Shown piece after piece: positions 4,173-59,351 of a stretch of 64,000 bases of DNA; the stretch's first letter is position 1; each line of letters opens with the position of its first letter. The notes under the pieces were generated by a model, which worked only from the letters and a program-made list of their open reading frames with translations, was not told where the DNA came from and made no database searches. Location: the sequence record PP925834.1, one strand, 5' to 3'. The DNA is from Escherichia phage MiataMamis. A program made the translations under genes and the position numbers.

Positions 4173-4200
4173 GGGAGGCTTGCGCCTCCCTTTTCCTTTT
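4173..4200 (+). terminator. intrinsic terminator
   Basis: GGGAGGC-ttgc-GCCTCCC hairpin followed by TTTTCCTTTT. Confidence 0.7.
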
Positions 4201-5028
4201 GGAGGCACTTTGAGCAAGAAAGAGTCCAACGACAAATATTACACAAACCCTGAGTATGCAGAATATCTTGTTGGTAAAGTAAAAGACAAGTATGGGAATT
4301 GTGCATACGTTGAGCCTTCTGCTGGAAGGGGTTCTTTTTCAAAACTATTTTCAAAGATACTGTCGTACGATCTAGTACCAGATCCTGAATTTGAAGGACC
4401 AACACAGTGCATTCAGGCAAACTTCTTGGAGGTGCATCCCAAGGCAGATGTCTTCATAGGTAACCCACCATTTGGCAAGAATTCATCTTTAGCTTGCAAA
4501 TTCTTTAACCATTGTGCATCATTGCTAGAGCTTGGCGGGGCTATAGCCTTCATATTGCCACGGACATTTGAAAAAATATTTTTTGCAAACAAACTGGACA
4601 TGTCTATGCACCTTGTCTACAGCGAAAGGTGCCCTAAGAACTCGTTTTTACTTAATGGCAAACCTTACGACGTGCCATGTGTTTTCCAAATTTGGGAGAA
4701 AAAGGCGTGCAATAGGGATCCTGTAGAGATTGGAGAGAATAAGTTATTTTCTTTTAGCACTCCAGATGACTACGACTTCTGTGTAAGACGTGTTGGGTAT
4801 AATGCTGGAAAAGTATTGGGGGATGATGACCCAAAATCTGAAGAATCGACATATTTCATAAAATCTTTAGTTGACGGTGTTGACAGAGTGTTTGCCGAAT
4901 GCTATTCTTCTTTTCAAGAAGAAGCAGGTAAGACTGCTGGAATGAAGAGTATAGGCAAGAAAGAACTACAATACATTTTGGAGACCCGGTATGATCAAAA
5001 GCATAGACTTGACCAAAGAACTTACTGA
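4180..5028 (+). CDS. DNA N6-adenine methyltransferase (putative)
   Basis: VEPSAGRGSF (motif I-like) then IGNPPFG (motif IV); track start lies inside terminator hairpin, likely true start TTG near 4210. Confidence 0.7.
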   Translation: MRLPFPFGGTLSKKESNDKYYTNPEYAEYLVGKVKDKYGNCAYVEPSAGRGSFSKLFSKILSYDLVPDPEFEGPTQCIQANFLEVHPKADVFIGNPPFGKNSSLACKFFNHCASLLELGGAIAFILPRTFEKIFFANKLDMSMHLVYSERCPKNSFLLNGKPYDVPCVFQIWEKKACNRDPVEIGENKLFSFSTPDDYDFCVRRVGYNAGKVLGDDDPKSEESTYFIKSLVDGVDRVFAECYSSFQEEAGKTAGMKSIGKKELQYILETRYDQKHRLDQRTY

Positions 5029-5449
5029 TGCAAAAGCTTTTGGTGAGACAGCGGTACAAAGAGGCCAGGCGATGGGACTGGCACTACCTTTCGTCTTAAA
5101 AGAGCACTTTACAGATTTTCAACTTATCAAAGGTGATAAGGGAATGCTTATCATGGAGCATAAGCTGAGTAAGAAACGCTACAAAGTTGTTTTTAATTCT
5201 AAAGCCCCAACAAAACTTGGATTCAGAACTTACAATCTCAACCCATCCTATACTAAGGGTGTTGGAAGGGTAGAACAACAGCATTTCAGTGCTAGAGCTT
5301 CTTTGGCCCCTTTGATGCTAAATTTCTCAGGGGTGGCTTTAGGATACCTTGATAAGAAAAGAGTTCTTCATGTCCGTTTCACAGACTTTGTAACGCTTTT
5401 AGCTAACAACGAAGTTGATGAAAAGGGACGTGTAAAAACAAACTTCTAA
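4991..5449 (+). CDS. hypothetical protein
   Basis: 152-aa ORF in operon context. Confidence 0.5.
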   Translation: MIKSIDLTKELTDAKAFGETAVQRGQAMGLALPFVLKEHFTDFQLIKGDKGMLIMEHKLSKKRYKVVFNSKAPTKLGFRTYNLNPSYTKGVGRVEQQHFSARASLAPLMLNFSGVALGYLDKKRVLHVRFTDFVTLLANNEVDEKGRVKTNF

Positions 5450-5476
5450 TAACGCATAGTATGATTGGAGACCGCA

Positions 5477-56430: not shown

Positions 56431-56488
56431 ATACAGTTCTCCTTAAAGGGGAGGCGGTTGTACTACCCCTCCCACTCTTGGTTAAACA

Positions 56489-58567
56489 TTAAAAAGGTGT
56501 TTCATCGTCTTCAAAACCTGGAACAGGGTCAGAGGACGGATCATCATACGGAAGGTCTTCTTGTGTGTCAACAGGGTTAACAGTAGGAGTTACAACCTTA
56601 TCAGCCACAACCCTACCTACAGGTGTTTCTACAACTGCGTGCTCTTGATCCTCAAACATAGCTTGAGGTCTCCAAACAACCTCCCCACCTTCACCGTCTG
56701 TGAACATCTGCATTTCTTTGTCCCAGTACCAGTTGCTGGCATCATGGAACTTACCTGTGTGGGGATCCATAACTAAGGTATCCGCAATGCCTAACGTTTT
56801 TGCTGGGCGGTTTTTAAGACCTACCAGTCGGACACGTCCACGGGAACGATCCACCATCTCTTCTGCCTCCACCCCAACAACTACCCAGCTAAGTTGCTCC
56901 AATCCGGCACTGCCCCGAAGGTTCTCTTTTCGTACAGGATACCAAAAAGGTAACGGATTCCCATCCTTGTCCTTTGGAGGCACAATCTCTGTGCGTTTCA
57001 GGTGAGCGATCACCAAGATAAATACATTAAACTGCTTACAGAACGCGGCTAGTTGCGTCATAGCCATGTCAAGTTCTTTGCGCTCATCCTTAACATTAAG
57101 CCCTGAAATTACCATGGACAGGTGATCCAGCACAATGTAACGGCAGTGATACAGACACACCATTTGTTTAAGCTTAGTGATCAACTCATCTACAGGAATA
57201 GACCCAAAATGCTTGAACACTTTGATTTTTCCAGCCTTGGCCCAAGATTGGTGAATCTCAGCATGCTCCTGATCAGTCAGGAACTGACTAGGGTCTTCAA
57301 CAAACTCTTTAACATCAAACCCCAACTGGTTGGCGTATAGAGAGTTAATTGCTTCCTCAGGGTCCTCTTCAAGGTGAATCAGACACAGGCGATCATCCTC
57401 TTCATAATCATCGGCTTTAGGGCATGTCGGATCCATCAAGTATTTTGCAATGCAGTGCTCTAGTTTCTTGGCTACAGTTGTTTTACCACCGCCAGATGGG
57501 CCTGTCAGCATCATCAAGGTGCCTTTGTGGAGTCCTTTCAGCATCTTCTGCAATTTAGGGAACTCCGCGCTGATATCTACGCCATTAGAAGTCTTCTTAC
57601 GAAGAGATTCAATGGAGAAGTCTTCTAAATCAGATACAGCATCGGGCACATATTTGACTGGGTGACGGAACATGTTGACAATATCTTCCAGCTTTTTAGC
57701 CTTCAGCATGTCACGGATATCTTTTACACCGTCAGGGTCGTTTACCTCGCTGGGGTATTCCACGTGGTAAACGTTATCAGCCATCAAAAATGCCGCGATA
57801 TTATGTGTGGCTTCAACACCTTTGATAACGTGTTTTTGCTTCTCTACCTCGTTAGCTGCATCGTTGTCCATTGCAAGGACCACTGTTCCGTAGCTACGGA
57901 TAAATTTCTCATTGTTTGCAAAAGTATCTACTGCGTTTGCACATCCACAGTTAATTCCAACAAAAGGTAGGCAGGGTTTTCCTGCCAGATCACCCCCGTT
58001 GATAACTGCATCGATCCCGTCCTGGACCTCTTTAGCCCACTGTTTCACCTTTGCCGGGGCTTTAGCGTTGGTGAGAATCCCTTTTACTTGTATCTGATAT
58101 GCAGCCTGCCATGCTGCAATAACATCGCCTTCCCCCTCACAAACGTTAATCTGCTTACGGTTGTTAGAAGATGCACACAGCTTTTGCCCAAACATTTGGG
58201 AGTTAGCCTTTACGATCCCAACCGTCGTAAAGTGCCCACGTTGCTCTTTGGGGATCGTCCAGTCACGCTTTTTGAAACCGGACAGATTCCCGTAGCGGTC
58301 GTAATATGGGAAATATGTTGCAGTAACTGTCACACCGTCTTCTTGGGACAATGCTGATCGCACACCAAAATATTGTGCAGCCATCAGACCGATATTTTGT
58401 TGTGGGACAGGGACGATTTTAGTATTTTCTAAAACAGTCTCTACAGTTTCAACCTCTTTTTCATCACGATAGTCTCGTTTCACACTTCCACCACTTTTAT
58501 ACTTAGTTGCTTTCGGGTTTGGCTCACCGAAACGGTTATATGCAGATGCCATAAATTTACTTCCCAT
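56489..58567 (-). CDS. primase-helicase (DnaB-like SF4 helicase with Toprim-like domain)
   Basis: Toprim-like LAMDNDAANE; Walker A LTGPSGGGKTT; acidic C-terminus ending in F. Confidence 0.8.
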   Translation of the reverse strand: MGSKFMASAYNRFGEPNPKATKYKSGGSVKRDYRDEKEVETVETVLENTKIVPVPQQNIGLMAAQYFGVRSALSQEDGVTVTATYFPYYDRYGNLSGFKKRDWTIPKEQRGHFTTVGIVKANSQMFGQKLCASSNNRKQINVCEGEGDVIAAWQAAYQIQVKGILTNAKAPAKVKQWAKEVQDGIDAVINGGDLAGKPCLPFVGINCGCANAVDTFANNEKFIRSYGTVVLAMDNDAANEVEKQKHVIKGVEATHNIAAFLMADNVYHVEYPSEVNDPDGVKDIRDMLKAKKLEDIVNMFRHPVKYVPDAVSDLEDFSIESLRKKTSNGVDISAEFPKLQKMLKGLHKGTLMMLTGPSGGGKTTVAKKLEHCIAKYLMDPTCPKADDYEEDDRLCLIHLEEDPEEAINSLYANQLGFDVKEFVEDPSQFLTDQEHAEIHQSWAKAGKIKVFKHFGSIPVDELITKLKQMVCLYHCRYIVLDHLSMVISGLNVKDERKELDMAMTQLAAFCKQFNVFILVIAHLKRTEIVPPKDKDGNPLPFWYPVRKENLRGSAGLEQLSWVVVGVEAEEMVDRSRGRVRLVGLKNRPAKTLGIADTLVMDPHTGKFHDASNWYWDKEMQMFTDGEGGEVVWRPQAMFEDQEHAVVETPVGRVVADKVVTPTVNPVDTQEDLPYDDPSSDPVPGFEDDETPF

Positions 58568-59351
58568 TAATTCTGCTCCTTACTACAGGCTCGTTTGCTA
58601 AGAATACAGCTTTTGCCCAACCACGTGGTGTGAGGCTTCGGATCATCTTCGTTCTTGCACTCTTTCCACCCAGCTTAGCGTGTTGCATGGAGTACCCACT
58701 AACCGCGTCAACTATTTGCGGGACAGGTTTTGTGTCCGGGATTATAAATCCATTACCTATCCAGCCGCAAGTTATTTTTGGATAGGCATCACGTGGAGCT
58801 ATAAATTCAGGAAACCAGGGGTTTACATCATCCTCCGGTAAATACCCGCCATAGTCAGAAGGGTGAAAACGGTAATCAGGTTTGCGCCACAGTGTGGACA
58901 TAACACCTACAGGATTCTCTACATGCCACGGGCAATCGTAAATCTCTCCCAGCTCTTCCGCAACCCGAGCATCCTTTACAGCATTAATTTGGATCATAGG
59001 GTCCTTAGCCAGCTTTTTCTTAAAATGTGCAGCACCTGATACCGCTAAATGCGTGCACGGAGGAAATGCAAGAATAAAGTCTGGAGCTGGGTACATGCAA
59101 AAAGTTTCCTGAGGGAACCATGGGTCAATCCAATAATCCACATAGTGAATGTTGGGATGATCGGTTATCACCTCTGCATAACTGCCGTGATCAGCACCTT
59201 CTGCATTAAAGCACAGGCACAGGTACCCAGCTTTTGCCCAGTCAATGACTGCACCACCAGACCCGTCAAATAGACTCCACACAACACCTTTGTGGTAGTG
59301 TTCTTTGTAGATAAATTTCAATTTGCTGTCTCCTAATGCAAAAAGCCCCAC
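58557..59351 (-). CDS. DNA cytosine-5 methyltransferase-like protein
   Basis: FDGSGGA (motif I), FPPCTHLAVSG (PC motif), HVENPVG (ENV); short at 264 aa; track start is non-ATG, true start may be TTG near 59321. Confidence 0.6.
   Translation of the reverse strand: MGLFALGDSKLKFIYKEHYHKGVVWSLFDGSGGAVIDWAKAGYLCLCFNAEGADHGSYAEVITDHPNIHYVDYWIDPWFPQETFCMYPAPDFILAFPPCTHLAVSGAAHFKKKLAKDPMIQINAVKDARVAEELGEIYDCPWHVENPVGVMSTLWRKPDYRFHPSDYGGYLPEDDVNPWFPEFIAPRDAYPKITCGWIGNGFIIPDTKPVPQIVDAVSGYSMQHAKLGGKSARTKMIRSLTPRGWAKAVFLANEPVVRSRINGK

Follow-up and report, generated by a model that had tools for sequence, protein, structure and literature searches.

Do the methyltransferases of Escherichia phage MiataMamis shield its DNA broadly against host restriction, or does each of them mask a narrow class of sites? 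The question is raised by a stretch of 64,000 nucleotides of this phage (sequence record PP925834.1; hereafter the window, meaning the whole stretch at its full length), for which a preliminary description had listed two amino-methyltransferases and one C5-cytosine methyltransferase and had proposed broad self-protective methylation. We favour, with reasonable confidence, the reading that these are three core solitary methyltransferase genes of Vequintavirus, one for a Dcm-like C5-cytosine enzyme (P3) and two for TaqI-like enzymes (P1 and P2), with narrow masking as their effect. Within this analysis, the reading is based on gene structure, homology, fold, catalytic residues, conservation and the lack of an annotated restriction enzyme; the formation of 5-methylcytosine (5mC) by a homologue of 54% identity was reported by others. 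From these data we infer the substrates of P1 and P2, the specificities of all three enzymes, the timing of expression and the biological role. The three genes are:

4210..5028, plus strand: P1, an NPPF amino-methyltransferase of 272 amino acids with TaqI-type motif order and a C-terminal extension of about 100 amino acids
18271..18804, plus strand: P2, a minimal NPPY amino-methyltransferase of 177 amino acids with ATG start at 18271, a catalytic core without a separate recognition domain
58557..59321, minus strand: P3, a Dcm-like phage C5-cytosine DNA methyltransferase of 254 amino acids

A six-frame scan of every stop-to-stop open reading frame (ORF) of at least 70 amino acids in the window finds [DNS]PP[YFWH] in two ORFs only (4174-5025 with NPPF, 18220-18801 with NPPY), and the combination of F.G.G, PC and EN[VPI] in a single one (58560-59366). 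At motif level, the list of three methyltransferase ORFs is complete, and their presence at all three places was borne out by an ORF check, the motif scan and homology to PHROG and PADLOC profiles. P1 starts with the TTG at 4210, preceded by a GGAGG ribosome-binding site at 4201-4205, and P3 starts with the TTG at 59321, with an AGGAG site 8 nucleotides upstream. Two other starts were rejected: the TTG at 4180 sits in the loop of the hairpin 4172-4191, and the GTG at 59351 lies inside the hairpin 59343-59368, each of them 30 nucleotides too far upstream. Both corrected starts agree with the annotation of Escherichia phage LL12 and with the lengths of the nearest proteins in the database (272 and 254 amino acids). 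With its start moved to 59321, P3 therefore has 254 and not 264 amino acids, and its Cys99 (see below) becomes Cys89 if counted from this start.

Two parts of the window match LL12 over their full length, with 98.8% and 99.5% identity (megablast, GenBank phages). LL12 belongs to Vequintavirus murica, and the phage is thus an rV5-like (Vequintavirus) coliphage; about 121 rV5-like records match the window parts at 90% identity or more. The window covers the early and middle half of an rV5-like genome, with nucleotide metabolism, a ClpP-like protease, many small ORFs and a block of DNA polymerase, primase-helicase and helicase genes. P1, P2 and P3 are present in essentially all of the approximately 117-121 related genomes. 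Relative to LL12, P1 has 3 synonymous and no non-synonymous codon changes and P2 has 5 and none, and P3 differs from its rV5 counterpart by 20 synonymous and 2 non-synonymous changes; as judged from these counts, all three genes are evidently under purifying selection. They are already labelled methyltransferases in LL12, rV5, Murica and many other records, all three LL12 orthologues bearing a DNA methyltransferase annotation, and a Danish wastewater phage survey detected methyltransferases in all vequintaviruses. Distances of 14 kb and 40 kb separate the genes, which occupy both strands and belong to separate transcription units; only P3 is part of the replisome operon, in which the end of P3 and the start of the primase-helicase gene share 11 nucleotides. 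The "one replication region" to which all three had been assigned is hence correct for P3 and not for P1 and P2.

The reading of P3 leans on a phage enzyme studied in the context of retron Ec86. K42 Dcm triggers retron Ec86/Eco1, and phage K42 escape mutants had lost the 711-bp "dcm" gene, loss of the gene being the route of escape (retron Ec86 preprint). Expression of K42 dcm raised 5mC in the Ec86 multicopy single-stranded DNA (msDNA), as determined by liquid chromatography-mass spectrometry, and the mutant C82A/E128A/K175A/K176A was inactive, this quadruple mutant being the only one tested (retron Ec86 preprint). According to the same preprint, K42 and the BASEL phage KarlJaspers share 95.4% identity at genome level. 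P3 aligns in full length with bas06_0055 of KarlJaspers, a "Dcm-like C5 cytosine methyltransferase" of 711 bp, with 54% identity (E 4e-86, 235 aligned residues), and the residues C82, E128 and K175 of the K42/KarlJaspers enzyme align to C99, E145 and K192 of P3. This full-length identity, together with the aligned residues, places P3 in a family with demonstrated DNA 5mC activity.

P3 also matches phrog_757 ("DNA methyltransferase") with E 3e-87. Its 3,540 relatives in a large protein database have mostly 219-262 amino acids, and the short length that had been called unusual is a trait of the family. By tblastn, the family is found in 1,505 of 50,697 phage records, mostly from phages of Escherichia, Klebsiella, Salmonella and Shigella, including T1-like, Dhillonvirus-like and other large myoviruses. 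FDGSG, FPPC, ENPV and RSLTPRG are invariant in an alignment of 27 family sequences. Motif I (FDGSGG, residues 28-33, with G30 and S31 nearly invariant) aligns to motif I of M.HaeIII, DNMT3B and M.HhaI; motif IV (FPPC, residues 96-99) aligns to the mutated C82 of K42 Dcm and to FPC (C81) of M.HhaI; motif VI (ENPV, residues 145-148) corresponds to E128 of K42 Dcm. With hhalign, the P3 family aligns to M.HhaI in motifs I-IV only, with a probability of 2%. RSLTPRG, about 20 residues after which P3 ends, resembles what we take to be motif IX (RKLHPRE in M.HhaI). Of the C5 motifs named earlier, FxGxGG and PC are present as FDGSGG and FPPC, and the supposed ENV is in fact ENPV, its third residue being Pro and not Val.

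The AlphaFold model of P3 is confident (predicted local distance difference test, pLDDT, 85; predicted template modelling score, pTM, 0.86). Its top 50 Foldseek matches in the PDB comprise DNMT3A/3B/3C and one prophage cytosine methyltransferase, and the predicted model has the C5-methyltransferase fold. Three members of the family (P0051, P0069, P0070) pass the PF00145 cutoff of 22 bits with 24.7-28.5 bits, in motifs I-IV only. The stretch from ENPV to RSLTPRG is as conserved as the rest of the protein (mean top-residue frequency 0.73 vs 0.71), and any recognition element of P3 must therefore be small; its variable part comprises about 25 residues only (201-225). The alignment makes it plausible that P3 does have such an element, very small and in large part common to the family, rather than none at all. 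The earlier suggestion of a target-recognition domain "minimal or absent" may thus stand in its first half, and its second half finds no support.

An alternative is that P3 transfers some other group in place of methyl, such as the carboxymethyl of carboxy-S-adenosylmethionine that phage CmoX uses, or that at least one of the three genes is an inactive relic. Candidates of the former kind were defined by SPPC together with Arg350, usually in the company of CmoA and a ligase (CmoX study). P3 has FPPC instead of SPPC, no CmoA or ligase is annotated nearby, and the homologue of 54% identity yields 5mC; carboxymethyl transfer by P3 was judged unlikely, and strong purifying selection speaks against relics. 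We regard either version as hardly credible.

P1 corresponds to CPT_LL12_101 ("putative DNA N6-adenine methyltransferase") and P2 to CPT_LL12_123 ("DNA methyltransferase") of LL12. The PHROG matches are phrog_5172 for P1 (E 6.8e-129) and phrog_799 "DNA methyltransferase" for P2 (E 8e-67), and the database holds 807 relatives of P1 and 312 of P2. Both proteins have the order X-I-IV, namely DKYYTNP ... EPSAGRGSF ... GNPPFG in P1, where EPSAG.G.F (35-43) and GNPPFG (84-89) are invariant in the family, and DEYVTPEW ... EPCRNSASGVF ... TNPPYS in P2. The two families are homologous by hhalign (probability 97.5%, E 5e-12), which matches the whole of P2 to roughly the first 170 residues of P1; by this alignment P1 and P2 are distant paralogues. 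The AF2 model of P1 (pLDDT 92) matches TrmN, M.TaqI, M.BseCI, HsdM and CamA in Foldseek. Its C-terminal region (about 170-272) is conserved and confidently folded, with no structural match identified. P2 keeps its place beside the ClpP-like gene in related large myoviruses, and the profile of its family matches ErmAM (4e-5, the top match), M.TaqI (5e-5) and Type I HsdM proteins. P2 scores 19.2 bits against Pfam Dam PF05869 (cutoff 28.1) and 16.1 against TIGR01712 (cutoff 97.05). As P2 and its relative P0323 stay below the PF05869 cutoff, P2 is, by these scores, a sister of the small phage Dam family and not a member, and the GATC specificity of that family is not transferable.

Several points weigh against the reading of three DNA methyltransferases with narrow masking. 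Neither P1, P2 nor P3 reaches a Pfam or NCBIfam cutoff, and all matches are sub-threshold: for P1 and/or P2 these are Eco57I (P1, 16.3 bits, cutoff 25.3), MTS, EcoRI_methylase (P2, 20.1 bits, cutoff 26.4) and Dam, and P3 has no PF00145 match at E up to 1. In P3, motifs VIII (QxRxR) and X (GNxVP) are both not recognizable in the alignment, the equivalent of K176 is Ile193 (Leu in sister clades), and the variable segment 201-225 is of the GYSxQHxK type and not NPGW as in the tested enzyme. The CCWGG specificity in the retron Ec86 preprint was assumed from host Dcm, its only support being that defence was lost when the CC of the msDNA was mutated. P2 ends directly after motif VIII, leaving no room for a recognition domain, and its motif I has an insertion of 2 amino acids relative to the wider family. 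A literature search found no methylome or restriction-digest data for any vequintavirus. The BASEL study describes the Vequintavirinae as exceptionally susceptible to restriction-modification (RM) systems in the laboratory.

The remaining points of this kind concern P1 and P2 and favour RNA (ribosomal or transfer RNA) or protein, and not DNA, as the substrate of one or both. METTL5, TrmN6, RsmC/D and HemK have an NPPY/NPPF motif as well. The profile of the P1 family has its best PDB matches in Ta1320 (METTL5-like, 5.6e-4) and METTL5 (0.025), ahead of M.TaqI (0.17), with ErmC' also among the matches; METTL5 belongs to an RNA N6-methyladenosine family. The top match of P1 in Foldseek is the tRNA methyltransferase TrmN, and that of the P2 profile is ErmAM, as given above. 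Some pipelines name homologues "predicted RNA methylase" (JGI) or "TrmN6", the latter for the P2 orthologue in one GenBank record. Cellular homologues of P1 (P0179, P0176) and of P2 (P0336) have no recognizable restriction genes next to them, and most of their neighbours are unannotated and thus uninformative. Against this stands the Type II DNA methyltransferase model of PADLOC (MTase_II PDLC03255), which spans residues 8-253 of P1 including the C-terminal domain (E 1.7e-34); P2 reaches only 1e-3 with MTase_II. The motif I of P1, EPSAG.G.F, is of the M.TaqI type (EPACAHGPF), most structural neighbours of P1 (about two thirds of the top 50 in Foldseek) are DNA adenine methyltransferases, the relatives of P2 approach the phage Dam family PF05869, and the window has no tRNA genes. 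A Pfam scan of the longer family members P0140 and P0358 found no fused DNA-related domains, and single-sequence PDB searches with P1, P2 and P3 gave nothing significant. On balance, RNA or protein enzymes appear unlikely; for P1, we hold DNA to be the substrate with good confidence, and for P2 the evidence leans towards DNA.

No restriction enzyme is annotated in the equivalent of the window in LL12, about two thirds of the window ORFs being without annotation. The three genes therefore hold as orphan (solitary) methyltransferases, as far as annotation can tell, and the absence of a cognate restriction endonuclease given in the preliminary description is supported. Their neighbours are an exonuclease-like protein, the ClpP-like protease, the primase-helicase and small hypothetical proteins. 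It has been proposed that the three enzymes together provide a broad methylation camouflage against host restriction. This would be in line with three methyltransferase genes (four in most relatives) under purifying selection and with P2 and P3 having a small recognition domain or none, as would fit short and frequent target sites. The panel of the BASEL study, in contrast, covers six Type I, II and III systems (EcoKI, EcoCFT_I, EcoRI, EcoRV, EcoCFT_II, EcoP1_I), and for these the susceptibility of the Vequintavirinae contradicts the proposal and largely refutes it; BASEL vequintavirus HeinrichReichert has P1 at 98.5% identity. Broad camouflage is thus quite improbable, and narrow masking is the reading that we retain. 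Base hypermodification was rejected as well: the "thymidylate synthase" of the window is ThyX-type and not a hydroxymethylase, and no report of modified bases in vequintaviruses was found.

The fourth methyltransferase of the relatives is gp230 of rV5 and others (88 phage records in all), a protein of 441 amino acids that matches PF01555 (6e-43) and the PADLOC model MTase_III (Type III Mod-like, 2e-200). Both the window and LL12 are without it. Its site in the window is 60566-60575, in the intergenic region between the ORFs 60263-60565 and 60626-60967 (minus strand), where a clean 1.3-kb indel is seen; in rV5, the gp230 cassette is flanked by the short direct repeat TCATC[AG]TTTG.

Regarding the target of P3, CCWGG is the leading candidate, albeit an unproven one, and with its different loop (GYSxQHxK vs NPGW) P3 may have a specificity other than that of the tested enzyme. 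The window shows no avoidance of CCWGG (148 sites vs 158 expected from a Markov model, and vs 100 ± 10 in dinucleotide shuffles) or of GATC (354 vs 233 ± 13 in the shuffles), both being enriched relative to the shuffles; GTAC and CTAG are under-represented, with observed/expected ratios of about 0.6. A guess at specificity from palindrome and site statistics was rejected, as these statistics single out no site. The GC-rich 6-bp palindromes GGCGCC, CCGCGG, CTCGAG, GTCGAC and CCCGGG are absent from the window.

By its relation to K42 Dcm, P3 may expose the phage to retron Ec86. A different combination was also considered, in which P2 fails to locate DNA sites by itself and joins its larger paralogue P1 to form an adenine methyltransferase of two proteins, or else has no sequence specificity or has RNA as its substrate, and in which, separately, the vequintavirus Dcm-like clade (with Ile for K176 and the GYSxQHxK loop) methylates a site other than CCWGG and thereby escapes retron Ec86 sensing. 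Taken jointly, we consider this doubtful.

These data may suggest the following mechanism for three solitary enzymes of narrow effect. In P3, Cys99 of FPPC would attack C6 of the target cytosine, Glu145 of ENPV would protonate N3, and the methyl group would come from S-adenosylmethionine bound at FDGSG. P3 is probably transcribed from a sigma-70-like promoter (see below) together with the primase-helicase and the DNA polymerase, and replicating phage DNA would for this reason be its substrate. P1 and P2 most likely catalyze N6-methylation of DNA adenine via NPPF and NPPY, respectively; the C-terminal domain of P1 (about 100 amino acids) would read the sequence, and P2 would consist of the catalytic core alone. 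Probably, each enzyme masks a single class of short sites and protects from the matching restriction enzymes only.

Putative control elements next to the genes, each assigned by consensus match only, are the following:

59389..59417, minus strand: sigma-70-like promoter (TTGACA-17-TACAAT, 11/12 match), upstream of P3 and the replisome genes
59343..59368, minus strand: GC-rich hairpin with T-run, between the sigma-70-like promoter and the P3 ribosome-binding site
4172..4191, plus strand: hairpin with T-run, directly upstream of P1
18234-18251: GCCCTC-TTCG-GAGGGC hairpin with T-run, preceding P2

The rV5 record has an annotated promoter "P231" at the place equivalent to 59389-59417. All three genes are directly preceded by a terminator-like GC-rich hairpin with a T-run, followed by a ribosome-binding site of their own. 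At P3, the hairpin lies about 20 nucleotides downstream of the near-consensus sigma-70 promoter (59417-59389), an unusual arrangement in that the terminator-like element follows the promoter.

Some observations concern other parts of the window and its database matches. Just upstream of P1, the exonuclease-like protein (3181-4164, plus strand) has a weak RNase_T match, and its C-terminal zinc ribbon is weakly similar to several families, one of them being the restriction-alleviation protein Lar (below cutoff, E 0.004). The "thymidylate synthase" gene (7071-8054, plus strand) encodes a ThyX-type protein of 327 amino acids that matches the Thy1 profile in the C-terminal two thirds only (positions 60-191 of 191, E 2e-9). 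The DNA polymerase A gene of LL12 is annotated with an intron, its equivalent in the window lying at about 54000-56400 on the minus strand. Between 7000 and 56000 the window is about 614 bp longer than LL12, as seen from megablast coordinate offsets. The regions 3000-7000 and 56000-62000 also match GenBank records of the MG0656xx series, 16-20 of which are titled "Campylobacter phage" with Campylobacter jejuni as host. These are 94-98% identical to the E. coli rV5-like phage described here, which suggests mislabelled or contaminant assemblies.

The three methyltransferase genes are real but already known, and they are ordinary phage equipment: more than 100 published vequintavirus genomes have them annotated, and the presence of methyltransferases in all vequintaviruses is already in print. 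The practical value lies in phage therapy and biocontrol, where rV5-like phages serve. The methyltransferases do not appear to shield these phages from common RM systems, and a phage might even be put at a disadvantage by its Dcm-like enzyme, which is a potential trigger of retron Ec86.

Among known systems, the Dcm of the Drexlerviridae phages KarlJaspers and K42 resembles P3 in size class (236 vs 254 amino acids), in the Cys of FPPC, the Glu of ENPV and the first Lys of PKK, and in the predicted DNMT3-like fold. It differs in its K176 and NPGW loop, in place of which the vequintavirus clade has Ile and a GYSxQHxK loop of 25 residues, and in its setting: the former enzyme belongs to a T1-like siphovirus, whereas P3, known from sequence, is part of the replisome operon in a myovirus of 136 kb. 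The catalytic domain of mammalian DNMT3A/3B is the best structural match to P3; it, too, is a C5 enzyme whose recognition element is very small. The identity is only 12-15%, with no evolutionary or functional link past the shared superfamily.

Like M.TaqI, M.BseCI, CamA and Type I HsdM, P1 and P2 have a Rossmann fold with motifs in the order X (D.YxTP)-I (EPxxxxGxF)-IV (NPPY/F), and their motif VIII contains an aromatic residue. M.TaqI has 421 amino acids, in contrast to 272 in P1 and 177 in P2; the C-terminal domain of P1 (about 100 amino acids) is unrelated, P2 has none, and the likeness to the M.TaqI sequence is confined to motifs X-IV. The small phage Dam proteins (PF05869/TIGR01712, profiles of 169/165 positions) resemble P2 in minimal size and NPPY core, and the P2-family member P0323 aligns to positions 9-129 of PF05869 below the cutoff. 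Finally, rV5 gp230 is, like P1-P3, a solitary methyltransferase in the same genome block, present in 88 records vs about 121 that match the window, and unlike them it is a clear member of PF01555.

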